From the NCBI GenBank assembly GCA_964551605.1, contig CAZKCV010000004.1, forward strand, positions 7,331 to 71,330: 64,000 nucleotides of DNA. Direction: 5' to 3'. This stretch comes from an uncultured Gammaproteobacteria bacterium (lineage in GTDB: Bacteria; Patescibacteriota; Microgenomatia; Daviesbacterales; UBA10151). Positions 2,011 to 36,438 of the stretch are shown here, piece after piece; within the stretch, counting starts at the first letter, position 1, and each line of letters begins with the position of its first letter. The translations under genes were made by a program, and so were the position numbers. The notes under the pieces are model-generated. The model had not been told where the DNA came from. It did not search any database and saw only the letters and a program-made list of their open reading frames with translations.

Positions 2011-3066
2011 ATGACGAACTTAGTTAAACTGCCCGGTTTAATTGATCCTCATGTTCATCTTCGCGAGCCGGGTGCTACCCAGAAGGAGGATTTTGAAACC
2101 GGCACCAAGGCCGCTATTGCGGGAGGCTACACTACAGTTTTAGATATGCCTAATAACCCGATAGCCACAGTATCCCCGGAAGCTTTACAGGAAAAAATAA
2201 ATTTAGCCAGTAATAAAATCTACTGTGATGTGGGGTTTCACTTTGGGGCCAGCGGTAAAAGTGTCCAGTATTTTCAGGAAGTTGCCCCTAAAGTTTTCGG
2301 ACTGAAGGTTTATATGAACCAGACCACCGGAGATTTGTTAATTGAAGACGATAATATTTTAGAGTCAATTTTTTCTGCCTGGCCTAAAAATATACCGGTC
2401 ATGGTGCATGCAGAAGGGGATACGCTGCAAAAAGCTATTTCTTTAGCCAAAAAATTTAGTAATCGATTACATGTTTGTCATGTTTCCTTAAGAAAGGAGA
2501 TTGCAGCTATTAAAGCGGCCAAAGAAGCTGGTATGGAAATAAGCTGTGAAGTGAGCTGCCATCACCTGTTTTTAACTGATGAAGATGCAAAAAGATTGGG
2601 TCCATACGGACTAATGAAGCCACCGCTTTCGAGTAAAGAAGATCAAGTTGCCTTGTGGGATGGGTTAAAAGACGGGACTATTGATATGATTGCCTCTGAC
2701 CATGCTCCGCATACCAAAGAGGAGAAGCAAGGGGAAAAACCACCCTTTGGTGTACCGGGATTGGAAACTACGCTATCATTGCTTCTGACAGCTGTAAATA
2801 ATGGCCGGTTGACTGTTGAAAGGTTGATTGAGTTAACTTCCGTAAGTCCCCGGAAAGTTTTTGGCATTCCTGAACAAAATGATACTTATGTTGAGGTGGA
2901 TATGGAGGAGAATTGGACAATTAATGATAAGAACTTGCAAACTAAATGCGGCTGGACCCCCTTTGCAGGAATGAAAGTCACAGGGAAAGTGAAAAAGGTG
3001 GTTTTAAGAGGGAAAATGGTATTTGATGGGCAGACTATCTTTGGTCCATACGGACAGATTCTCTGA
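2011..3066 (+). CDS. pyrC: Dihydroorotase (amidohydrolase family, type I signature)
   Basis: DPHVHLREPG metal-binding signature, a second His cluster (VHAEG) and SDHAPH; 351 aa. Confidence 0.75.
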   Translation: MTNLVKLPGLIDPHVHLREPGATQKEDFETGTKAAIAGGYTTVLDMPNNPIATVSPEALQEKINLASNKIYCDVGFHFGASGKSVQYFQEVAPKVFGLKVYMNQTTGDLLIEDDNILESIFSAWPKNIPVMVHAEGDTLQKAISLAKKFSNRLHVCHVSLRKEIAAIKAAKEAGMEISCEVSCHHLFLTDEDAKRLGPYGLMKPPLSSKEDQVALWDGLKDGTIDMIASDHAPHTKEEKQGEKPPFGVPGLETTLSLLLTAVNNGRLTVERLIELTSVSPRKVFGIPEQNDTYVEVDMEENWTINDKNLQTKCGWTPFAGMKVTGKVKKVVLRGKMVFDGQTIFGPYGQIL

Positions 3067-3067
3067 A

Positions 3068-3096
3068 TTGACACTTTGGTTTTTTTGTGCTATATT
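3068..3096 (+). promoter_or_regulatory. Sigma70-type promoter: TTGACA (3068-3073), 17-nt spacer, TATATT (3091-3096)
   Basis: Consensus -35 hexamer with a good -10 at canonical spacing, directly upstream of the structured leader. Confidence 0.5.
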
Positions 3097-3099
3097 TTA

Positions 3100-3362
3100 T
3101 AGTTAAATGCGTTTGTTTGCGTAAGCAACGATAAGTCCGCCGCAGCGGACGAGCAGCATACATCAGCCTTCGGGTAGAGTATGACAGAAATTGAACTGTA
3201 TAAATACAATAAGCGTGTCGGTAGCGGAGCGCTAATGAGGATTACCTCAAACAGTCTCCGCCGAAAGGCGGATTTTAAATGGGTAATCGAATACAAGGTG
3301 GCACCACGGAGATCCCGTCCTTGAGTTTAACTTTAATGTTAAAGTCAGAGACGGGATTTTTT
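3100..3362 (+). promoter_or_regulatory. T-box-riboswitch-like leader in front of the argHGF operon
   Basis: The sequence aatacaaGGTGGCACCACGGag resembles the T-box consensus AAUUAGGGUGGUACCGCGG. It is preceded by a small hairpin (ccgcc gaaa ggcgg) and followed by a terminator. Stem I and the specifier were not resolved by eye. Confidence 0.45.
3312..3362 (+). terminator. Intrinsic terminator (putative T-box terminator)
   Basis: Stem atcccgtc(3312-3319)/gacgggat(3350-3357) with an internal hairpin, then TTTTT (3358-3362). The argH ATG at 3363 follows immediately. Confidence 0.55.
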
Positions 3363-4565
3363 ATGAAAAAATTATGGCAGAAAAGTGAATATAAGTTAGA
3401 CCCGGTTGTGGAAGCCTTTGAAACCAAAGGAGATCTTTTGATGGATCAAAAACTGCTCAAATTTGATGTGCAGGGTTCATTAGCCCATGCCAAAATGCTT
3501 TTTAAGATCGGAATTTTATCTAAAAAAGAACTGGAAAAGATAGAAAAAGCTCTTAAGGAGATTTTGGATTTGGATAGAGCCGGGAAGTTTAATTTGGAAA
3601 TGGGGGATGAAGACATACACACCAAGATTGAAAACTATATTACCGAAAAATATGGTGAAGTGGGTCAAAAGCTGCATACCGGCAGGTCCAGAAATGACCA
3701 AGTACTAACTATGATCAGGCTTTATGGTAAAGACCAATTAGAGGCTATTGAGCTTGAATTAAATAACCTAATCAAGAGTTTTACTGTTTTTTCCCAAAAA
3801 TATGGTGCCATTAAAATGCCAGGTTATACCCATATGCAAAAAGCCATGCCTTCTTCAATTAAGATTTGGTGTGGTAGCTTTTTAAGCTCGTTACAGGATG
3901 ATATGGTTTTGCTTAAAAGTGCGATGGAGTTAAATAATCAGTCGCCTTTAGGATCAGGAGCAGGTTATGGTGTGCCGCTTGATCTGGACAAGAAATATTC
4001 TGCCAAGCTATTAGGATTTTCAAAAGTGCAGGAAAATCCGCTTTATTGTCAAAACTCCAAAGGTAAAACTGAGGCAGTAGTAATTGCCGGTTTAATTAGT
4101 ATTCTGCAAACTATAAATAAGTTTGCTTCAGATATGTTGTTGTTTACAACTGCTGAATTTGGTTTCTTTGTAATGTCTGACAAGGTGACTACCGGTTCCA
4201 GTATTATGCCGCAGAAAAAGAATGTGGATTTAGCAGAGTTACTAAGGGGTAAAGTTTCCCTGGTGTTAGGAAATTATGTTCAAATGGTCAGCCTTACGAC
4301 TAACTTAATCTCCGGTTATAACCGGGATTTGCAGGATATTAAAAAACCTTTAATAGAAAGCTTGGAAACCACTTTGGACAGCCTGAAAGTAACTAAGATT
4401 TTACTGGAGAATTCAACTCCTAATCAGGAAGTCCTGGAAAAAGCCATGACTCCGGAAATATTTGCTGCTGAAAAAGCTTTGGATTTAGTTAAAAAAGGAA
4501 TGCCGTTTAGAATAGCATATCAAAGAATCGGAGAGGAGGTGGATAACAGTGAAACAAACAACTAG
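3363..4565 (+). CDS. argH: Argininosuccinate lyase
   Basis: N-terminus MKKLWQ.. matches the conserved MKLWGGRF start of ArgH. Fumarase/lyase family features, the GSS..PQKKN region and ~400 aa length. The ORF-track start at 3279 lies inside the leader/terminator and was rejected. Confidence 0.85.
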   Translation: MKKLWQKSEYKLDPVVEAFETKGDLLMDQKLLKFDVQGSLAHAKMLFKIGILSKKELEKIEKALKEILDLDRAGKFNLEMGDEDIHTKIENYITEKYGEVGQKLHTGRSRNDQVLTMIRLYGKDQLEAIELELNNLIKSFTVFSQKYGAIKMPGYTHMQKAMPSSIKIWCGSFLSSLQDDMVLLKSAMELNNQSPLGSGAGYGVPLDLDKKYSAKLLGFSKVQENPLYCQNSKGKTEAVVIAGLISILQTINKFASDMLLFTTAEFGFFVMSDKVTTGSSIMPQKKNVDLAELLRGKVSLVLGNYVQMVSLTTNLISGYNRDLQDIKKPLIESLETTLDSLKVTKILLENSTPNQEVLEKAMTPEIFAAEKALDLVKKGMPFRIAYQRIGEEVDNSETNN

Positions 4566-5805
4566 TTATATTAAAGTTGCTTCTCATGAAGGTAAAGTCG
4601 GGGAAGTTAAAAAGGTGCTCCTGCTTTATTCCGGAGGATTGGATACCTCAGTCATGCTGAAATGGATCCAGGACCAGTATAAATGTCAGGTAGTAACCTT
4701 AACAGCGGATTTAGGTCAGCAACACGATGATTTGGAGGCGATTAAGCAAAAAGCACTCAAGTTCGGAGCAAAAGAAGCAGTAGTTTTGGATTTAAAAGAT
4801 GAGTTTGCTAATGAATATATTAGTAAGGGCATTAAAGCTAATGCTTCTTACCAGGGTAATTATTATTTATCAACTCCGATGGGCAGGGCGGTTTTAGGGA
4901 AAGAGGTGGTGAAGGTTGCTAAAAAATATGGTTGTGATGCGATTGCGCATGGCTGTACGGGTAAAGGAAATGACCAGGTTAGAATTGAGAGCTATATTTT
5001 AACCCATGATCCGAAAATGAAAATTGTTGCCCCTGTCAGGGAGTGGGCTATGGATAGAAATGAAGAAATCGCTTATGCGAAGAAACATGGAATACCAATT
5101 CCGGCGACAGTGGATTTTCCATACAGCGATGATGACAATATGTGGGGGATTACCTGGGAAGGCGGAGAGATAACTGACCCTAGTTTAATCGTATCTGAGG
5201 AAAAATTTCTAACAACTTATACTTTACCTAGAGATGCTTCTGATAAAGAGGAATTAGTAAAGCTTAAATTTGAAAAAGGAATTCCGGTTGCTTTAAATGG
5301 GGAAAAATTGAGTTTAGCTAAGTTAGTTATCAGACTGAATAAACTGGCAGGTAAACATGGTGTGGGAACATTTCAGATTCTGGAAGACAGGTTAATCGGA
5401 CTTAAAAACAGGGGAGTGTATGAACATCCTGGTGCCCATGTCATTATTGAAGCTCACAAAAACCTGGAAAAGTATGTTTCTACCCGGGTATTAAATGAGC
5501 TAAAAGCAATAATGGATATTAAATGGGGATATTTGTGTTACGGGGCATTGTGGTTTGATCCGGCAATGAAGGCAATAAATGCTTTCAATGACCAGGTTAA
5601 CGAAAAAGTTACCGGCGAAGTAATTATTAAATTATTTAAGGGTAGTACTACGGTAGTGGCTGTAAAGTCACCTTTTGCCTTAGATTATGCCTCATTTAAT
5701 AATACTGAGGGGTATGAGTTTAATGTCAACGCTGCTGCCGGGTTTATTGAGACTTACTCTTTGCAAATGAAGCTGGCTAATCAAGTAGGGAAAGGAAAAA
5801 AGTGA
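4549..5805 (+). CDS. argG: Argininosuccinate synthase
   Basis: VLLLYSGGLDTSV PP-loop motif, ~418 aa, ArgG-type C-terminus. GTG start behind a GGAGAGGAGGTGG SD. Confidence 0.9.
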   Translation: MKQTTSYIKVASHEGKVGEVKKVLLLYSGGLDTSVMLKWIQDQYKCQVVTLTADLGQQHDDLEAIKQKALKFGAKEAVVLDLKDEFANEYISKGIKANASYQGNYYLSTPMGRAVLGKEVVKVAKKYGCDAIAHGCTGKGNDQVRIESYILTHDPKMKIVAPVREWAMDRNEEIAYAKKHGIPIPATVDFPYSDDDNMWGITWEGGEITDPSLIVSEEKFLTTYTLPRDASDKEELVKLKFEKGIPVALNGEKLSLAKLVIRLNKLAGKHGVGTFQILEDRLIGLKNRGVYEHPGAHVIIEAHKNLEKYVSTRVLNELKAIMDIKWGYLCYGALWFDPAMKAINAFNDQVNEKVTGEVIIKLFKGSTTVVAVKSPFALDYASFNNTEGYEFNVNAAAGFIETYSLQMKLANQVGKGKK

Positions 5806-6740
5806 GCAAAGTACAGCATCTTTTGTCCATTACTGATTTATCAGCCAAAGAAATTTGGTCAGTTTTTAAACTGGCCAAAAAGCTCAAACAGGAGCTTAAA
5901 AGCAAGGGTAGTAATAAGCCTTTTCTTAAAGGTAAATCCTTAGTGCTTATTTTTGAAAAGCAGTCGCTTCGCACCAGGATATCCTTTGAGATCGGCATGG
6001 CTCAGTTCGGCGGTCATACTCTTTATCTTGACCCGCGGGATACCGGGATTGGGGTCAGGGAGTCAGAAGCAGATATTGCCAGAGTACTTTCCGGCATGGC
6101 AGATATCATCGCAGCCAGGACTTACTCGCATCAGACAATCGTGGACATTGCCCAAAATGCCACGATTCCGGTAATTAACGCCTTGTCAGATATAGAACAC
6201 CCGTGTCAGGCATTAACAGACCTGTTTACTATTTGGGAAGTTAAAAATTATAAGAATTTATCCGGATTAACTGTTAGTTATGTGGGGGATGGAGATAATA
6301 ATGTGGCCCATTCTTTATGTCTGGGTACCGCAATGTTGGGGATGAATTTTAGGTGTGGATCACCAAAGGGTTATTCTTTGAATTCAGAAATAGTTAAAAG
6401 AGCCAGAAAATATCAGGCAAATATTTTGCAAACCGAAGATCCCAAAGAGGCAGTTTCAGGAGCCGATATAGTAGTGACTGATACTTGGATTAGTATGGGT
6501 GATACGGATAAAGAGGGTAGGATTAAAAAATTCAAAAAGTATCAGGTGACTCAGGCTTTAATGAGATATGCCAAGAAGGATGCCATTTTTATGCATTGTC
6601 TGCCAGCCTACAGGGGGAAGGAAGTGACTGCTGAAGTAATTGACGGTCCGCAGTCAGTGGTTTTCCAGGAAGCAGAAAATAGGCTTCATGTCCAGAAGGC
6701 TTTGATATTTTTCCTTTTAGGGAATAGAGCGAATCATTAA
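5802..6740 (+). CDS. argF: Ornithine carbamoyltransferase
   Basis: SLRTRISFE (STRTR-type carbamoyl-phosphate motif), DTWISMG and HCLPA, which distinguish OTC from ATCase. Confidence 0.85.
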   Translation: MSKVQHLLSITDLSAKEIWSVFKLAKKLKQELKSKGSNKPFLKGKSLVLIFEKQSLRTRISFEIGMAQFGGHTLYLDPRDTGIGVRESEADIARVLSGMADIIAARTYSHQTIVDIAQNATIPVINALSDIEHPCQALTDLFTIWEVKNYKNLSGLTVSYVGDGDNNVAHSLCLGTAMLGMNFRCGSPKGYSLNSEIVKRARKYQANILQTEDPKEAVSGADIVVTDTWISMGDTDKEGRIKKFKKYQVTQALMRYAKKDAIFMHCLPAYRGKEVTAEVIDGPQSVVFQEAENRLHVQKALIFFLLGNRANH

Positions 6741-6762: not shown

Positions 6763-7737
6763 TTATTTAACTAACTTATTACTAAAGACTTCAGCCAGCA
6801 TGCAACGGGCACTGCCGCCGCCGATTGTCTCTATGGTAGGAATGCTAACAGGGACAAGGTCACCATGATCTAGTAGTTGTTTTCTTTGATCTTTAGTAAA
6901 CGCATCATACGCCGTAACAGACATTATGATTTTATTCTTTCCTAAAATGGATCTTACCTGTAAGATGTTGCCGCAAAAAGAATGTAGTTGATCTAAGGTA
7001 ATCGGTATAGTTTCTAATCCCAATGTAGTCAGTTCCTTTTTAACAGTTTCGCGTTCTCTAACGTCTTTCATTGCCTCAAAACACACAGTAGAAAAATCTT
7101 CACCAATGGTCATTACTACATTCGTGTGATAAATTGGTTTTTTGTTTTTATCATATGCATGAAATTTGACTGGTCGGTAACCAGTTTTGTTGCAGAAATC
7201 ATCTAAAACTGAACAAGATGTTCTAGCAGATTCATGAGCAAAAGCTACTTTTCTTCTGCGATCAAGAATGAGGCTTCCGGTACCTTCAAGAAAAGACTCT
7301 GTTGCTTCATAATGAGTAAGATCCAAGATGGCTGAATGATCAATTTGAAGTCCCAGAGCCCGGCTGACATTGTCCAATTGTCTTTCAGCTCTCCTATTTG
7401 GAGCAAGCATAGGATACAGGATGATATTCGTGCTGCTTAATTCATTATGGAAGGAAATCCAGTTATTAGGAAAAACTGCATCAGGCGTGATTACATCTTC
7501 TCTGCTAGGACAGATTAAGACTCTGATATTATTCTTACGTAACGAAGCTACTGCGGCATTAAATTCTAACACAGCCTTATTACGGATTTCTTCGGAGTTA
7601 TGCGGTAAATTATTTTGGAAAGTATTAGTAGTGGCGGTTTGATTATTGAAACCAAATTGATCGGGGCTAATCATTAAGAGGGTATCTGTTAATTGGGCAG
7701 ACTTAGACGACAAGAGTGCTTCTGTTGTAGTAGTCAT
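6763..7737 (-). CDS. Amidinotransferase-superfamily hydrolase (CtlX/DDAH/arginine-deiminase-related), C-terminal catalytic Cys
   Basis: 324 aa; C-terminus GGGSARCMLAEVF is typical of the catalytic Cys of guanidino-group-modifying enzymes. Confidence 0.5.
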   Translation of the reverse strand: MTTTTEALLSSKSAQLTDTLLMISPDQFGFNNQTATTNTFQNNLPHNSEEIRNKAVLEFNAAVASLRKNNIRVLICPSREDVITPDAVFPNNWISFHNELSSTNIILYPMLAPNRRAERQLDNVSRALGLQIDHSAILDLTHYEATESFLEGTGSLILDRRRKVAFAHESARTSCSVLDDFCNKTGYRPVKFHAYDKNKKPIYHTNVVMTIGEDFSTVCFEAMKDVRERETVKKELTTLGLETIPITLDQLHSFCGNILQVRSILGKNKIIMSVTAYDAFTKDQRKQLLDHGDLVPVSIPTIETIGGGSARCMLAEVFSNKLVK

Positions 7738-7798
7738 AAGATTTAGGCAATGTATAGGATCTTATACCTCGGATTTAAGGTTGTCAATAATTCGCAAC

Positions 7799-8299
7799 TT
7801 AAAAAGTTGGTGTAGGATGGGTGGGGAAAGGACTGAGCGGATAAGGGAGAATAGTTACCCTTAGTCCGGTTGCCTGATCCACATGATCAGTGCCGCGCTT
7901 TGCGCCCAGCTTGATCATGGTCATAGATTTTAATATTTCTGGTGGGTATCTATTGTCGTTTCCGACAGCACATTTAACAGCTTCTGCAAGGGAAAAAGGA
8001 TCCTGATCTATAACCAAATATAGTCCTTCGCCGCATTGTTTTCTGCGTGAGTTGCACACCTGTAATATTTGTTCCGCTCTTTCCTGATCTGAATCGCATA
8101 CGACGAGAGGAGAGGGGTCTGGTATTCCGGCCTCAGTTAATAATTTGCCCGCTTCTTCTTTGATTATTGTATCAGGCAAGCCTTCTTTGCGACTAAGGAA
8201 ACTTCCGCCATACGAACAGTGGACTGTTTTTACAAAAGGACAAATATCTTGAATCCTTGTTTCTGTTGCATTACCAATTAAAATAATACGTTCAGCCAT
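7799..8299 (-). CDS. Hypothetical protein
   Basis: 166-aa ORF between argS and the amidinotransferase-like gene; no motif recognised. Confidence 0.3.
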   Translation of the reverse strand: MAERIILIGNATETRIQDICPFVKTVHCSYGGSFLSRKEGLPDTIIKEEAGKLLTEAGIPDPSPLVVCDSDQERAEQILQVCNSRRKQCGEGLYLVIDQDPFSLAEAVKCAVGNDNRYPPEILKSMTMIKLGAKRGTDHVDQATGLRVTILPYPLSPFPTHPTPTF

Positions 8300-8338
8300 A
8301 CAAGATTTCTATAACATATATGAAATATAATTTCAATA

Positions 8339-10246
8339 CTACATTCTATTAGGTGCCTCAATACATAGTAGGTTTAGACCTTTTTTGATAACTTGAGCAG
8401 CAGCCCTGGTTAGTCGGAGGCGAGTATTTCTTATATTTAAATCCGGTTCATTGAATACGCTGACTTGTTTATAAAAATCGCTGAATAAACCAGCGGTATG
8501 GTAAATATGATCCGCGATCACCTCCGGACTGTTTTTTGCTCCGGCTAACGCAACTATTTCGGGAAACTTACTTATTTGTTTAATCAATAGAAATTCTGAT
8601 TGGTCAGTTGTTTTAACGGGTATATCTGGCGCTAGTTTTATTGCTTCTTCTTCAGCGCGTCTTAGTAGTGCTGCCATTCTGGCGTGGGCATATTGGATAT
8701 AAGGAGCACTGTATCCGGTAAAAGATAAAGCTTTATCCCAGTCAAAACTGATTGATCTCTCTCTGTTTTGTCCAAGATCAAAAAAAGCCACCGCCCCAAC
8801 TCCTACTTGTTTTGCTATGATTTCTTTTTCCTCGGGAGGGAGGTTTTTATTAATCTCATTGATTTTTTGTCTGGCCCTATCAATAGCTTCATTTAGTACA
8901 TCCTCCAAAAATATCACTCTGCCGGCCCTGGTGGACATTTTGCCTTCCGGCAGCTTAATCATCCCAAAATGAAGATGTTCAAGATGCGGTCTTTTGCCGT
9001 CGGTCATTTTATCGAAAGTGGCAAAAACTTGCTGAAAGTAATCTTGTTGATCTTCGCCAACTACATAAAGGATGCGGTCCGGTTGAAACCAGGCGCACCG
9101 GGCAACCAGTGTAGCTAAATCACGGGTAGAATAGAGGCTTGTTCCGTCAGCCTTTTGAATGACTAAATTCTTAAGGTTCCTTTCCGATAAATCGACTATG
9201 GCAGCTCCTGTTTCATCGATAGTAGCAATACCCCGGTCTTTCGTATATTGCAAGACAGGAGGCAACATGCTGAAATAAAATGATTCGCCCAGCATGTATT
9301 CATACTTCGTTCCGAGCAAATCATAAACTTTCTGGAATTCGGTTAAACTTTGTTCAGTAGCCCACTTTAGTAGTTTTAATGCCTCTGTGTCACCTGCTTC
9401 TAGTCTTTGGAACCATTTTCTTCCTTCTCTCTCCAGAGGGGTTTCTACCTCGGCGTTAGGATCGCGCAATCTTGCTCTTTCTGCCGCTCTCTCTTTTTCA
9501 ACCTCATCATGTATACGGACGTACAGTTTGTATAAGCCTCTTACAGGGTCGGTATTATCGCGCAGTTCTTCGTAATCCTGACTCCAGAGTTCGTAAGCCC
9601 TTGTCAGCATGCCGAATTGGGTACCCCAATCTCCCAAGTGGTTATCACGGATAACGGTATAACCATTAGCACGATGTATCCGCGCAAGCGATTCCCCAAT
9701 GATAGTTGATCTGAGATGGCCAACACTCATATATTTGGCTACATTTGGAGAAGAGCAGTCAATAATAATTGTTTTACCGCCACCTGTTTTTTGCTCTCCA
9801 TACCGATCTTGATAGGTTTCAATTTCCGTAAGGACTTGGGAAGTAAACACCCCTGGATCAAGTTGAAAATTAAGGTATCCGCCTTCAGCATTGGCTTGTT
9901 TGATTGCTTGAGGGTGGGGTTCTTGATTAAAACCTGTAGCCAACTCTTGAGCAATTTGTGCTGGACTTTTTCTTAGAGTTTTTGCCATTCCGTGACAGAC
10001 TATAGTCAAGTCAGCTTGGATCCTGGAAGGTGGTTCGATTACTTGTATGCTTGTTTCTGTTAAAGCATGATTAAGACCTGTTAAATGAGTTTCTAATTCT
10101 TTCTGTAATTTTGCCCAGACATATTCGTTGTTTTCAGGTATTGTTGTCAGATTTGGTTCGACAACAGGAATCATGCTTTTTGGAAGGGGGGGGACAGGAA
10201 TTCCCAGATAGTGTAAATCAGATTCAGGATTTCCCTGTGTTTTCAT
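8339..10246 (-). CDS. argS: Arginine--tRNA ligase
   Basis: Class I HIGH-like SPNVAKYMSVGHLRS, a DALR anticodon-binding C-terminus and an Arg_tRNA_synt N-domain. The ORF track extends to 10279; the internal ATG at 10246-10244 gives a 4-nt overlap with the upstream gene, so the exact start is uncertain. Confidence 0.85.
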   Translation of the reverse strand: MKTQGNPESDLHYLGIPVPPLPKSMIPVVEPNLTTIPENNEYVWAKLQKELETHLTGLNHALTETSIQVIEPPSRIQADLTIVCHGMAKTLRKSPAQIAQELATGFNQEPHPQAIKQANAEGGYLNFQLDPGVFTSQVLTEIETYQDRYGEQKTGGGKTIIIDCSSPNVAKYMSVGHLRSTIIGESLARIHRANGYTVIRDNHLGDWGTQFGMLTRAYELWSQDYEELRDNTDPVRGLYKLYVRIHDEVEKERAAERARLRDPNAEVETPLEREGRKWFQRLEAGDTEALKLLKWATEQSLTEFQKVYDLLGTKYEYMLGESFYFSMLPPVLQYTKDRGIATIDETGAAIVDLSERNLKNLVIQKADGTSLYSTRDLATLVARCAWFQPDRILYVVGEDQQDYFQQVFATFDKMTDGKRPHLEHLHFGMIKLPEGKMSTRAGRVIFLEDVLNEAIDRARQKINEINKNLPPEEKEIIAKQVGVGAVAFFDLGQNRERSISFDWDKALSFTGYSAPYIQYAHARMAALLRRAEEEAIKLAPDIPVKTTDQSEFLLIKQISKFPEIVALAGAKNSPEVIADHIYHTAGLFSDFYKQVSVFNEPDLNIRNTRLRLTRAAAQVIKKGLNLLCIEAPNRM

Positions 10247-11472
10247 ATTTTTGATCTTCGCAATTGACCTGTCATGCAATGGGCTGCACCGTAGCCCTTG
10301 GTACTTTCGAATAGATCCGTATGAACTACTTTTTTACCTAACTTTTCCAACTGTTTAATCGTTTCGGTATTTCTAGATAGTGGCACGAATACAGAGCAGT
10401 CGCCGTTTGGCTCTTCTCCTTTGAGCAGAAAATTGCAGCCAAACCCTTTTTGCTCTTCTTGCGGGACGACTACGATATTGTCTTCTGTTTTCTCCAGATA
10501 AGCAATAAAAGTATCTGGGGTATCTTGTATAACCGTATCGCCGTTTACTGTGTTTAAAAATCTGACTCTTCTTTTTCTTGCCTCTTCTATGCAAACAGCA
10601 ATTTCGCTTTTGCCTATTGGATTCGAGAAGGTGTCGAGATGCATAGAGTCTTGTTGCTCGCTGAAGGATTTTTGAAAAGGATCCTCATCTTCGACGATGG
10701 CAAATTTTAGGCAGTATTGTTCTAGTTGTGGTTTGAGAGCTTGGTATACACTGATTACTGCACCCAAAGTAGTACGTGTTCCTACGCCGACAAATACAGT
10801 GCCGTTATGTATATAAGCGTCTCCGCCTTCAAAAGTTTCATTTGAAGGGATGATGATCGTATGGTGGGGCGCCAGATGTTGCTGATAGATGAGCTCATAA
10901 AGTCCGACTTCATGTTTTCTAATATCTTTAGCCATTCGTGAAACAACTCTTGCATCTAGCAAGACATTCATGTGATCTCTGCCGTAGAGACTATTGCCCA
11001 GAGGAAGTTGTGGGTCAACACTCAGTGCTTGATTTAATCTCAAAGCTTTTTCTTCTCCATATCGGACAACATCTTGTTCTACCAGTGTTGTTATTAAGTC
11101 ACTAGAATTTTGTACATGAGTATTATATTGACCTTGGATAGTTTTAGCTTTCCTATGCATAGCAGAAATTACATCGTCTTTTTTCAAATGTTTTTGGGGA
11201 CCTAGAGCATCCGCTAGAAGATCTCTTACCATAAGAACTCGGATGCCATGATCTTGTAAAGTCGCAGCATAGTTTAATCCTTCTTGTCGGGCTGTAACTG
11301 CGTCAAATGATTGGTGAAATAATGAGATTTGTATCGGATAGCATTGAGTTAAGATTGCTTCCGCTCCTATTGCACCCCAAGTGGCAACCGTTCTTAACGG
11401 TTCAGCTTCATCAAGAATCCCTATCTGCACAGATTTAAAAGGGAGGAGGGATTCAGGTGAATGTGAGGTCAT
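10243..11472 (-). CDS. arcA: Arginine deiminase-like enzyme (amidinotransferase superfamily)
   Basis: 409 aa; FEGGD, MHLDTF and a C-terminal GYGAAHCMTGQL catalytic-Cys motif, as in ADI. Confidence 0.6.
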   Translation of the reverse strand: MTSHSPESLLPFKSVQIGILDEAEPLRTVATWGAIGAEAILTQCYPIQISLFHQSFDAVTARQEGLNYAATLQDHGIRVLMVRDLLADALGPQKHLKKDDVISAMHRKAKTIQGQYNTHVQNSSDLITTLVEQDVVRYGEEKALRLNQALSVDPQLPLGNSLYGRDHMNVLLDARVVSRMAKDIRKHEVGLYELIYQQHLAPHHTIIIPSNETFEGGDAYIHNGTVFVGVGTRTTLGAVISVYQALKPQLEQYCLKFAIVEDEDPFQKSFSEQQDSMHLDTFSNPIGKSEIAVCIEEARKRRVRFLNTVNGDTVIQDTPDTFIAYLEKTEDNIVVVPQEEQKGFGCNFLLKGEEPNGDCSVFVPLSRNTETIKQLEKLGKKVVHTDLFESTKGYGAAHCMTGQLRRSKI

Positions 11473-33364: not shown

Positions 33365-34679
33365 AGGTTTAAACAAACAAACTGTTAAAGATATTTCGGC
33401 TTACAAAAGCGAGCCGGAGTGGATGAAAAGCTTAAGATTGCAGGCTTTAGAGTATTTTGAAAAAATGCCCCTACTAACTTTTGGGGGAGATTTAAGTGGA
33501 TTGGATTTTGAAAAAATCCAGTATTTTGTTAAATCCACTGATGGAATTAAGCATTCCTGGAAGGATGTCCCCTCAGAGATTAAAAGGACTTATGAAAAAT
33601 TAGGCATCCCCAGGATCGAACAGAAGTTTTTGGCCGGGGTAAAAGCCCAATGGGACAGTGAAATGGTCTATGGATCGCTGTTGAAGGATCTGGAAGAGCA
33701 GGGGGTGGTATTTTTAAGTATGGATGAGGGGTTGCAGAAATATCCGGAACTGGTAAAACAATACTTTGGCACAGTTATAAAGCCTGATGAGCACAAGTTT
33801 GCTGCTTTAAATTCAGCTGTCTGGTCCGGCGGCTGTTTCATCTATGTGCCGCCTGAGGTTTCCATCAGCTTGCCGCTTCAGGCTTATTTCCGTCTGAGCG
33901 CCAAGAATATCGGCCAGTTTGAGCGGACTTTAATTATTGCCGATGAAGACAGTTTCATCCATTACATTGAAGGCTGCAGCAGCCCGGTTTATACCACGGA
34001 TAGCTTACATGCCGGTGTGGTAGAAATAATTGTTAAAAAAGGGGCCCGGGTGCGCTATACCACAGTTCAAAACTGGTCTAAAAATGTCTATAACCTGGTC
34101 AGTAAACGGGCTCTAGTGCAAGAGAATGGAATCATGGAATGGGTGGATTTTAACAGCGGGTCAAAACTCACCATGAAATACCCCTCAGCAGTGCTGGCCG
34201 GTAAAGGAGCCAGATTGGAAATGCTCTCTTTAGTCATGGCCGGACCTAAGCAATACTTAGATTGCGGCGGCAAAGCCATTCATCTGGCTTCAGATACTTC
34301 ATCCGTTATTAACTCTAAATCAGTCAGTTTCAAAGGAGGGATTACTTCATATCGGGGGTTGGTTAAAATAGCTTCAGGAGTCAAAGACGTCAGATCCAAA
34401 ACCGTTTGCCAGGCTTTGATTTTGGATGAAAAATCCAAATCTGAAACATATCCTGCTATTTCGGCTATTGGTCCAAACTCTGAAGTATCTCATGAAGCCA
34501 CAGTTTCCCGACTATCCGAAGAGCAGATTTTTTATCTGCAAAGCCGGGGGATTACTGAGAGTGAAGCCCAGGCGATGATTGTGAATGGTTTTATCAAGCC
34601 GCTGGTCAAAGAGTTGCCTTTTGAATATGCGGTGGAGTTAAACCAATTAATCAGGTTAGAAATGAAAGGAGCATTATGA
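33336..34679 (+). CDS. sufB: Fe-S cluster assembly protein SufB/SufD family
   Basis: SufB-like beta-helix region with conserved HxxxxxS..C motifs; 447 aa. Confidence 0.8.
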   Translation: MRKKVMQKFKGLNKQTVKDISAYKSEPEWMKSLRLQALEYFEKMPLLTFGGDLSGLDFEKIQYFVKSTDGIKHSWKDVPSEIKRTYEKLGIPRIEQKFLAGVKAQWDSEMVYGSLLKDLEEQGVVFLSMDEGLQKYPELVKQYFGTVIKPDEHKFAALNSAVWSGGCFIYVPPEVSISLPLQAYFRLSAKNIGQFERTLIIADEDSFIHYIEGCSSPVYTTDSLHAGVVEIIVKKGARVRYTTVQNWSKNVYNLVSKRALVQENGIMEWVDFNSGSKLTMKYPSAVLAGKGARLEMLSLVMAGPKQYLDCGGKAIHLASDTSSVINSKSVSFKGGITSYRGLVKIASGVKDVRSKTVCQALILDEKSKSETYPAISAIGPNSEVSHEATVSRLSEEQIFYLQSRGITESEAQAMIVNGFIKPLVKELPFEYAVELNQLIRLEMKGAL

Positions 34680-35853: not shown

Positions 35854-36249
35854 ATGGATTTAACACAGGAAATTATTTTGCAGCATGGAAGGCACTCTCC
35901 TTTTAAAGGGAAGCTTAAAAATCCTACTTTTAGTTCAAAGCTGGAAAATCCCCTGTGTGGTGATGAGATCAGGATTGAAATAAGGTTAGAAAAAGATCAG
36001 GTTGTAGAAATTGGTTTTACCGGGGACGGCTGTTTAATTTCTCAGGCAGCAGCCAGTTTATTAGTAGGGGAAGCAAAAAAGGTAAGAAACTTAAGTAAAA
36101 TTAAAAAATTTAATCAGGAAACAGTGCTTGAGCTTTTAGGTATTAAGTTAACTCTTTCCAGGATTCAATGCGCCATGTTGTCAGTAGAGGTTTTGCGAGA
36201 GATAGTTGGGTATTCATCTTCCAGCACCAAGTCAGCCAAGGTGGGTTGA
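35854..36249 (+). CDS. sufU: SufU/IscU-like Fe-S scaffold / sulfur acceptor
   Basis: CGDEI and GDGCLIS conserved Cys motifs; 131 aa. Confidence 0.7.
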   Translation: MDLTQEIILQHGRHSPFKGKLKNPTFSSKLENPLCGDEIRIEIRLEKDQVVEIGFTGDGCLISQAAASLLVGEAKKVRNLSKIKKFNQETVLELLGIKLTLSRIQCAMLSVEVLREIVGYSSSSTKSAKVG

Positions 36250-36438
36250 TGATCTGAGTCTGGTGGAACCTTTATAGCTTCCCAAGAGCTTTTAATCAGA
36301 CGCTTGAACCTCGAGCCAATACGAGGATCTTTTTCGCAACTTTTCATAATTGTTATTTTAACATACACTAATTAATGTATAATGTCAGGCTGTTGTGGGG
36401 TGTTAGTGTTTTTTTCGACTAACTAAAATAAGGGAGAT

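Follow-up and report, generated by a model that had tools for sequence, protein, structure and literature searches.

How are the arginine genes argH-argG-argF of a Microgenomates bacterium controlled? This question is raised by a 64,000-nt stretch of contig CAZKCV010000004.1 (hereafter the window), in which three genes with overlapping reading frames (argH, 3363-4565; argG, 4549-5805; argF, 5802-6740; plus strand) form an ornithine/citrulline-to-arginine operon at 3363-6740. The matches of the three products to their family profiles (TIGR00838, 338 bits; NF001770, 472 bits; NF001986, 407 bits) all exceed the cut-offs. A reading made earlier from the letters of the window alone (the sequence-only reading) had placed a T-box-like leader of ~260 nt ahead of the operon, and a leader of this length was found at ~3103-3362 on the plus strand. 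T-boxes are a textbook case of one RNA reading another. The analysis described here indicates that the leader is very probably a reduced tRNA(Arg)-sensing T-box riboswitch, which controls argH-argG-argF mainly by transcription attenuation. The sequence-only reading was right in kind, but it missed the reduced, non-canonical 5' decoding module and its extra conserved parts.

The T-box sequence AAGGUGGCACCACGG was located at 3295-3309 (core GGTGGCACCACGG, 3297-3309), and its bulge reads UGGC at 3299-3302, as had been claimed. The antiterminator, or discriminator (3295-3322; like all elements of the leader, on the plus strand), is formed by helix A1 (AAGG 3295-3298/CCUU 3319-3322) and helix A2 (ACGG 3306-3309/CCGU 3315-3318), with the T-box bulge UGGCACC (3299-3305) between them. 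In the alignment to the Rfam T-box model RF00230 it reads AAGGUGGCACC-ACGG-AGAUC-CCGU-CCUU. An intrinsic terminator occupies 3311-3362, with its hairpin at 3311-3358 and a U6 run at 3357-3362; the U-run abuts the argH ATG at 3363, in agreement with the sequence-only reading. Because positions 3313-3322 are common to the antiterminator and the terminator, the two hairpins are mutually exclusive, which is a feature of T-boxes, and the arrangement is the same in all relatives. According to computed folding, the terminator has an energy of -26.1 kcal/mol and the antiterminator one of -8.1 kcal/mol; this is the usual imbalance of a T-box, in which the tRNA is needed to tip the choice. The entire leader folds more stably than its shuffles (z = -5.5, 0/200).

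Upstream of the leader, the predicted sigma-70-type promoter was found where it had been placed (3068-3096), with the -35 element TTGACA at 3068-3073, a 17-nt spacer, TG at 3088-3089 and the -10 element TATATT at 3091-3096 (11/12 match), and transcription presumably starts near 3103. Taken alone, such a promoter is at chance level in this AT-rich region (2 sites, compared with 1.8 ± 1.4 in shuffles). Its position is conserved: in 28 of 31 related leaders, a promoter matching at least 9/12 lies 7-24 nt 5' of the point where the conserved leader begins.

Of 80 related loci (Microgenomates-type), ~45 carry the motif GTGG[CT]ACC at a distance of 60-130 nt 5' of argH or of a small gene that precedes it, and ~36 related leaders, mostly 5' of argH in Microgenomates metagenome-assembled genomes (MAGs), share a conserved architecture. 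Group A, to which the window belongs, comprises 29 full members, with 7 recovered from metagenomes by means of the pattern GTGTCGGNARCGGAGC. When metagenomes were scanned with this pattern, 120 stretches were returned, among which 7 were true family members; in viral contigs it returned 91 stretches and no true member. Most members have argH downstream; in L106 the gene is that of an ornithine transcarbamylase (OTCase), and in L003 and L026 a GNAT gene stands ahead of argH. The argH leaders of group B grade into canonical T-boxes. L013, with its distal Stem I complete, reaches 97.8 bits with RF00230 (gathering score 93); the scores are 64-77 bits for L042, L047 and L028 and 33-54 bits for others. 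By position, the group B specifiers are AGA-G, AGG-G, AGG-G and CGA-G, all of them arginine codons. The discriminator, the graded continuity with canonical argH T-boxes and the AGA, AGG and CGA specifiers together support the proposal that a T-box controls argH-argG-argF.

For the 29 leaders of group A, the paired segments were excised with conserved flanks as anchors and joined, and MAFFT left the resulting 87 columns ungapped. The 31 pairs were 98.1% paired, compared with 78.9 ± 0.9% in shuffles (0/500), a percentage that is inflated because complementarity was used to place some of the segments; the number of pair types at fixed positions is not inflated in this way. Compensatory change was observed at 21 of the 31 pairs, in 176 cells, compared with 51 ± 5.5 in shuffles (0/500). 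When the partners were slid by 1-3 columns as a control, 21-46% were paired. Within the antiterminator, all 4 pairs of A2 covary and a pair of A1 is AU or GC, and the 7-nt bulge UGGNACC between these covarying helices is invariant but for N, which is C in 14 leaders and U in 18.

An E-value search of 2950-3500 with RF00230, the check that the sequence-only reading had named, gave 33.4 bits (E = 9.6e-6). This score lies far below the gathering score, and only the part that covers Stem III and the T-box (3240-3325) is convincing; the 5' part of the alignment is spurious, as its Stem I region extends into the upstream gene. By itself, this result comes near to the condition that the sequence-only reading had set for its own refutation. 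The second check was manual folding of a specifier loop with an arginine codon: no canonical Stem I/specifier loop could be folded in the window leader, but the arginine codon CGC was found in the apical loop of a covarying 6-bp hairpin.

This hairpin is part of a K-turn-like junction plus Stem I at 3108-3155. The basal helix P0 pairs UGC 3108-3110 with GCA 3153-3155, its third pair occurring as AU, UA or GC. It is followed by a GUUUG bulge, where the window carries a lineage-specific, GNRA-capped mini-hairpin UUGC-GUAA-GCAA (3117-3128), and by tandem purines (AA 3133-3134, GA 3151-3152). The covarying 3-bp helix, the bulge and the tandem purines give the base of Stem I a geometry that would fit a K-turn; GA/GA pairs are present in some members only. 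Stem I itself is a 16-nt hairpin of 6 bp (3135-3140/3145-3150), with compensatory changes in 5 of the 6 pairs, and its apical loop CGCA (3141-3144) is made up of the specifier CGC (3141-3143) and the conserved purine A3144.

Stem II (3157-3183) consists of a lower helix (CAUAC 3157-3161/GUAUG 3179-3183), in which 5 of 5 pairs covary, an internal loop (AUCAG 3162-3166/UAGA 3175-3178) and the cap CC-UUCG-GG (3167-3174); in the variant 2 leaders (Stem I loop GUCGCGA), it has the terminal loop CAAAAU. The Stem IIA/B pseudoknot follows at 3185-3210, with IIA formed by CAG 3185-3187/CUG 3196-3198 and IIB by the loop AUUG 3190-3193 and CAAU 3207-3210. The middle pair of IIA is GC in 19 and AU in 10 sequences. 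For IIB, each loop was matched against the downstream strand of the leader it belongs to (cognate) and against those of the other leaders (non-cognate): the helix averaged 3.36 bp in the first case and 2.74 bp in the second, and none of 5000 permutations was as high. The complementary pairs across leaders include GUCA/UGAC, UCUG/CAGA, UUUGG/CCAAA and AGGAU/AUCCU. An F-box-like sequence, CUGUAUAAA, lies at 3196-3204 (CUG, then UAUAAA; family form CYGUAAAA), and a Stem IIA/B pseudoknot with an F-box (CCGUYA-like) is a feature of T-boxes. An apical-loop specifier on a short Stem I, and decoding that relies on Stem II and IIA/B, both seen here, define the T-boxes with an ultrashort Stem I (PMC7583486). 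With 18 relatives, and the window excluded, a covariance model was built for the 5' domain; it recovered 3124-3233 of the window with 73.5 bits (E = 6e-19) and nothing else credible within the 64 kb; a 13-bit match at 34571-34675 lies inside a gene and was taken as noise. A second exact GGTGGAACC at 36262-36270 was also set aside as chance, being inside an unlisted coding stretch (the 35855-36250 region, NifU/IscU-like by eye) with no Rfam match.

CGC was observed in the Stem I loop of 27 of the 29 full group A leaders. By loop type, CGCA was found in 20 leaders, GUCGCG(A/U/C), with a 5-bp stem, in 8, and AGCA and CCUA in 1 each. To judge from its sequence, the window leader presents CGC as an Arg specifier. 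A C at the third position is what the 'C rule' imposed by Stem II would lead one to expect (PMC7583486), and it also fits Arg T-boxes, which prefer a 3' C (PMC7778990). In all members N of the UGGN bulge is C or U only, which would be compatible with tRNA(Arg). Bacterial tRNA(Arg) has G73 or A73, and tRNA(Ala) has A73.

The leader with the loop CCUA bears on the register of the codon. Stem I of this leader (L171; GUCUAU-CCUA-AUAGAC) and that of the arg leader L031 (GUCUAU-CGCA-AUAGAC) differ in two loop bases and in nothing else. L171 has its leader at the contig end, and the GH130 gene that lies upstream was located again, at 99% identity, on a 32.9-kb contig (L201). There, the proline-type member (L201:7060-7372, equal to L171:1-320, minus strand; Stem I loop CCUA, bulge UGGU) precedes an AA_kinase gene that starts at 7373, past the terminator; the automatic gene call at 7304 falls inside the T-box. 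Among NCBIfam profiles, the product matched only proB (95 bits, E = 5e-27) and P5CS, and 8 of its 8 PDB matches were glutamate 5-kinases or P5C synthases, so the gene appears to encode a divergent glutamate 5-kinase homologue of proline synthesis. A Stem I specifier followed by a purine was thus found to match the regulated genes in both cases (CGC-A with argHGF, CCU-A with the glutamate 5-kinase gene), and the bulge UGGU of the Pro leader is what A73 of tRNA(Pro) would predict. The GH130 neighbours P0002 and P0003 had no kept synteny and yielded no further Pro-type leaders; a search for homologues of the proB-like protein at E <= 1e-30, too strict a threshold, recovered nothing beyond the query.

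Between the pseudoknot and Stem III, the family carries an extra hairpin that is foreign to described T-boxes. In the window it reads AGCG-UGUCGGUAGCGGAG-CGCU (3212-3233), and the family consensus is UGUCGGNAACGGAG. Its stem covaries (AGCG/CGCU, AGUG/CACU, ACAUG/CAUGU, AGAG/CUCU, CGCA/UGCG) around an invariant core, and it accepts inserted hairpins between GG and AAC. The hairpin has no match among Rfam families. It is identical in the Arg and the Pro leaders and is therefore not an identity element. Two pairings proposed for it were dropped: that of the 5' GCGU with its 3' strand lacked covariation, and complementarity of its loop to the T- or D-loop of tRNA was not conserved.

The outer helix of Stem III (GAUUACC 3240-3246/GGUAAUC 3282-3288; 3240-3288, -21.6 kcal/mol) was aligned as Stem III by RF00230, where it reads GAUUACC...GGGUAAUC. 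Its 5' strand overlaps a small hairpin X:X' (UGAGG 3236-3240/CCUCA 3245-3249; 3236-3249), which is predicted from folding to form first in nearly all members, and would have to be displaced for Stem III to form. The sequence-only reading had described a short stem-III-like hairpin; Stem III is present, but it is long and encloses a GC hairpin and a U-run (3257-3276). This inner element, detected with a terminator scan, is terminator-like or pause-like and consists of UCCGCC-GAAA-GGCGGA (3257-3272) and UUUU (3273-3276); its hairpin has an energy of -11 to -11.8 kcal/mol, depending on the flanks that are folded with it. An inner GC hairpin with 4-7 U was observed in 26 of the 29 full group A leaders, and the inner hairpin plus U-run in 6-8 of 10 reduced group B leaders, in 1 of 7 partial group A leaders and in none of the 5 leaders that retain the elbow platform. 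An antiterminator for the inner hairpin was considered and dropped, as no complementarity was found. The idea that its 3' arm (GGUGGA) is a homologue of the T-box sequence was dropped as well, since it holds for a subset only and is probably just an effect of the GC-rich hairpin. As a separate observation, eight reduced group B argH leaders (L022, L032, L039, L040, L045, L050, L053 and L074) carry within Stem III a conserved CUGUCAAGGC...ACAG hairpin and then AUUUUU, in the same place as the hairpin and U-run of the window's group.

Taken together, these elements suggest how the leader could work; tRNA binding, charge sensing and a transcriptional rather than translational read-out are what we infer from them. 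The 5' half of an RNA started near 3103 would fold into a compact decoding module of K-turn-like junction, Stem I, Stem II and IIA/B, in which the apical loop of the 6-bp Stem I would present CGC and a purine. A platform of interdigitated T-loops (IDTM), on which the tRNA elbow could stack, is absent. In the 3' half, an ordinary T-box discriminator, Stem III would be stacked below the antiterminator, and the bulge UGGC could base-pair with the 3' GCCA of any uncharged tRNA(Arg) that has G73. When arginine is scarce, the anticodon of uncharged tRNA(Arg) would dock on CGC and its free 3' end on UGGC; the docked tRNA would hold the weak antiterminator (-8 kcal/mol), and RNA polymerase would read into argH. 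With charged tRNA(Arg), this stabilisation would be missing, the -26 kcal/mol terminator would form, and transcription would stop at the U-run. In a full-length RNA with the terminator formed, the start region would be buried too.

Four other explanations were weighed. If the register of the loop were shifted by one base in the 3' direction, the codon would be GCA (in the GUCGCGA variant, GCG), an Ala codon plus purine, and a different tRNA would be sensed. In either loop variant a purine follows the codon, whether this is taken as CGC (Arg) or as GCA/GCG (Ala), and L024 (loop AGCA) retains GCA and loses CGC. In the leader linked to proB, however, the later register would read CUA (Leu) instead of CCU (Pro), and since CCU matches the glutamate 5-kinase gene, the codon is placed at loop positions 1-3. 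Moreover, half of the leaders have UGGC, which would need G73 and not the A73 of tRNA(Ala), the relatives with a canonical specifier loop at the same genomic position read AGA, AGG or CGA, and the regulated genes are arginine genes; an alanine sensor is thus very improbable. That there is no tRNA sensor at all, only a plain or a protein- or metabolite-controlled attenuator that resembles a T-box by chance, is hardly credible. The Rfam score under the threshold and the missing canonical Stem I are what such an attenuator would explain. It would leave without explanation the bulge UGGNACC and the A1/A2 geometry, invariant over ~45 loci, the graded continuity with leaders that exceed the Rfam threshold, the IIA/B pseudoknot with its F-box-like sequence, and the loop triplet that shifts along with the regulated pathway. 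Nor is there a leader peptide, as the sole open reading frame (ORF) is in frame with argH and not conserved.

A mainly translational read-out, with the 3' hairpin acting as a sequestrator of the start region and not as a terminator, would follow the actinobacterial T-boxes with an ultrashort Stem I, and every described T-box with an apical-loop specifier is translational (PMC7583486). In the window, the ATG comes directly after the U-run with no spacer, and the sole bases resembling a Shine-Dalgarno (SD) sequence, GGGA 3353-3356, sit in the 3' arm of the terminator hairpin; occlusion of the ribosome-binding site, as claimed in the sequence-only reading, is therefore plausible, but no clear SD was found there. 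Class II T-boxes have an SD sequestrator and no intrinsic terminator, whereas this hairpin, with its GC-rich base, -26 kcal/mol and six U, is a textbook intrinsic terminator. In most relatives, the hairpin and U-run are followed by 10-30 nt with a separate SD ahead of the start codon, so that termination, and not sequestration, is the conserved read-out. A mainly translational switch is accordingly improbable, and in the window, where the ATG adjoins the U-run, both termination and sequestration may act. A two-checkpoint device, in which 3257-3276 is a real terminator or strong pause passed upon tRNA binding and the T-box terminator then checks charging, is a more serious contender, albeit still an unlikely one. 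It is favoured by the distribution of the inner element, which is common in full group A and reduced group B leaders and absent from those with the elbow platform, by the conserved competing hairpin X:X' just upstream, and by the slow tRNA capture expected without the IDTM (PMC7583486). Against it, no alternative pairing that would block the inner hairpin was found, the U-run of the window has four U only, and 6 of 7 partial group A leaders are without the element although they also lack the IDTM, so the association with the missing platform may simply be inherited. As a speculative guess, the inner hairpin and U-run could be a programmed pause that gives a Stem I without a platform time for tRNA capture.

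Several results weigh against the leader as a transcriptional tRNA(Arg)-sensing T-box. The RF00230 search at the gathering threshold (93 bits) found no match anywhere in the window, and among 12 group A leaders the best RF00230 score was 43.4 bits, with 7 of the 12 undetected at E <= 0.01. The distal Stem I platform (AG bulge plus distal loop; IDTM) is absent from the window leader, and transcriptional T-boxes generally require it (PMC7583486); it is present in the relatives L013, L042 and L047. The tandem pairs of the window (AA/GA) include an A.A where a K-turn expects G.A, and the purine-rich internal loop of Stem II, AUCAG/UAGA (GAGAAA/AUUA in relatives), differs from the canonical AGUA/GAA S-turn. 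The covarying closing pair leaves the specifier loop just 4 nt, which is small for a kissing contact of three base pairs, so that the closing pair would have to open. The standard T-box model makes no provision for a terminator-like hairpin 5' of the T-box sequence, and the loop AGCA of L024 presents a Ser codon in front of argH. No tRNA genes were found in the window and no tRNA(Arg) gene among the 56 loci with which UGGN could be compared with N73. Finally, the pair counts rest on a structure-guided alignment of our own, which favours pairing but not compensatory change.

Compared with canonical class I transcriptional T-boxes (RF00230; B. subtilis tyrS and glyQS), the window leader is alike in its UGGN bulge, A1/A2, Stem III and mutually exclusive intrinsic terminator, in Stem II and the IIA/B pseudoknot with an F-box-like sequence, in the specifier plus purine, in the K-turn-like base of Stem I and in the matching amino-acid genes. 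It differs in that it lacks a long Stem I, an internal specifier loop bearing an S-turn and an AG bulge/distal-loop platform; the specifier of its family stands in an apical loop of 4-6 nt, and an invariant hairpin between the pseudoknot and Stem III and a hairpin plus U-run inside Stem III are added. The actinobacterial ileS T-boxes with an ultrashort Stem I (M. tuberculosis, N. farcinica; Sherwood et al. 2015, according to PMC7583486 and PMC11297988), with which it was compared by description and not by sequence, share the apical-loop specifier, the lack of an elbow platform and a decoding module that relies on Stem II and the IIA/B pseudoknot. They have a translational SD sequestrator and sense tRNA(Ile), whereas the window leader has a strong intrinsic terminator, a predicted Arg specificity (Pro in a sister leader), a Microgenomates host of the candidate phyla radiation (CPR) and the two added modules. 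Among the argH leaders of other Microgenomates, L013, L042, L047, L028, L030 and L022 are alike in genomic position, discriminator and Arg specifiers (AGA, AGG, CGA), but they keep an internal specifier loop, five of them have the distal platform, and the UGUCGGNAACGGAG hairpin is missing; the platform-bearing leaders lack the inner hairpin and U-run.

Arg T-boxes of Firmicutes (argS leaders; C. difficile) likewise use an Arg specifier to control arginine genes by antitermination; they have a canonical long Stem I and are detectable by RF00230, whereas in the window argS is without a leader and a biosynthetic/salvage operon has one. Vitreschak and colleagues are said to have described, in 2008, Arg-specific T-boxes on arginine biosynthesis and transport genes of Clostridium difficile, and the remark of the sequence-only reading that T-box control of arginine biosynthesis genes is uncommon was judged fair. 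According to current reviews, transcriptional T-boxes need the elbow platform of a long Stem I to capture tRNA fast, and apical-loop specifiers belong to the slow translational switches of Actinobacteria. In its decoding module the window leader belongs with the ultrashort class, in its expression platform with the transcriptional class, and neither class has been described from this phylum; among the papers searched, none combines T-boxes with CPR or Patescibacteria. The window leader and its ~36 relatives, which have an apical-loop specifier together with a strong intrinsic terminator and two added conserved parts, offer a natural test case for the timing of tRNA capture during transcription. 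CPR bacteria, whose gene regulation is almost unstudied, thus appear to use T-boxes on genes of arginine and proline synthesis or salvage.

The searches behind the T-box database TBDB used RF00230, together with a class II model that was applied to Actinobacteria and to those class-I-detected sequences whose Stem I is truncated (PMC7778990). With its arginine codon shown at the tip of a tiny hairpin, the window leader is missed by the standard database model; the curated Rfam threshold misses this lineage entirely, and catalogues built on that threshold therefore miss it too. We tentatively propose, at somewhat less than even odds, that Microgenomates hold a distinct transcriptional T-box subclass without the elbow platform, in which this loss is offset by the UGUCGGNAACGGAG hairpin (a structural or tRNA contact) and by a pause or first checkpoint in Stem III, and which has diversified to at least Arg and Pro and is invisible to searches of the RF00230/TBDB style.

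The argH of the window is 73% identical to its homologue in a Candidatus Daviesbacteria MAG, and the 30 nearest loci are nearly all from Daviesbacteria, Levybacteria, Gottesmanbacteria or unplaced MAGs of the same group, which places the source lineage in the Microgenomates (CPR/Patescibacteria). The argH homologues begin at MKKLWQK, that is, at window position 3363. An in-frame ATG at 3279 lengthens the argH frame by 84 nt, across the T-box and the terminator (ORF 3279-4565), so that gene callers may set the start within the leader; in practice they do so in such leaders, as in this ORF and in the gene call at 7304 of L201. Leader-peptide attenuation was considered for the leader and dropped, there being neither a conserved short ORF nor a run of Arg codons.

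Upstream of the leader lie recF (611-1684) and, directly adjacent, a short pyrC-like (dihydroorotase-like) gene (2011-3066) of 351 aa. Most profiles match its product in two stretches, from approximately profile position 45-48, and it may be a truncated or compact variant. On the minus strand, facing the arg operon, an arginine/citrulline cluster extends over 6763-11472: ctlX, for a citrulline utilisation hydrolase (6763-7737, 351 bits), a 166-aa ORF without a family, argS (8339-10279, 471 bits) and an amidinotransferase-like gene (10243-11472), whose match to arcA is weak (82 bits, cut-off 489). The sequence-only reading had put argS 3 kb away, but it actually lies 1.6 kb past argF and 5 kb from the leader; that argS has no evident leader of its own was borne out, as both the T-box motif and model matches were absent upstream of it.

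Some further features were observed among the relatives. The A2 loop of the antiterminator holds a large insertion with internal repeats in L002 (2843-2930, ~85 nt) and in L004 (2304-2350, ~45 nt); a review describes such insertions for translational T-boxes. The small gene between leader and argH encodes a GNAT acetyltransferase in L003 (2588-3004, 80 bits) and, by a weak match, in L026, where the small ORF starts ~52 nt past the T-box motif; this GNAT protein may be a short N-acetylglutamate synthase. In L018 (2501-3001) and L005, the gene in the same place encodes a protein of 158-166 aa without a family. Many contigs (L004, L005, L007, L011-L016 and others) are titled 'uncultured Gammaproteobacteria' or 'Micrarchaeota' despite a clearly Microgenomates-like argH and leader, and these titles are probably taxonomic mislabels in the source assemblies.

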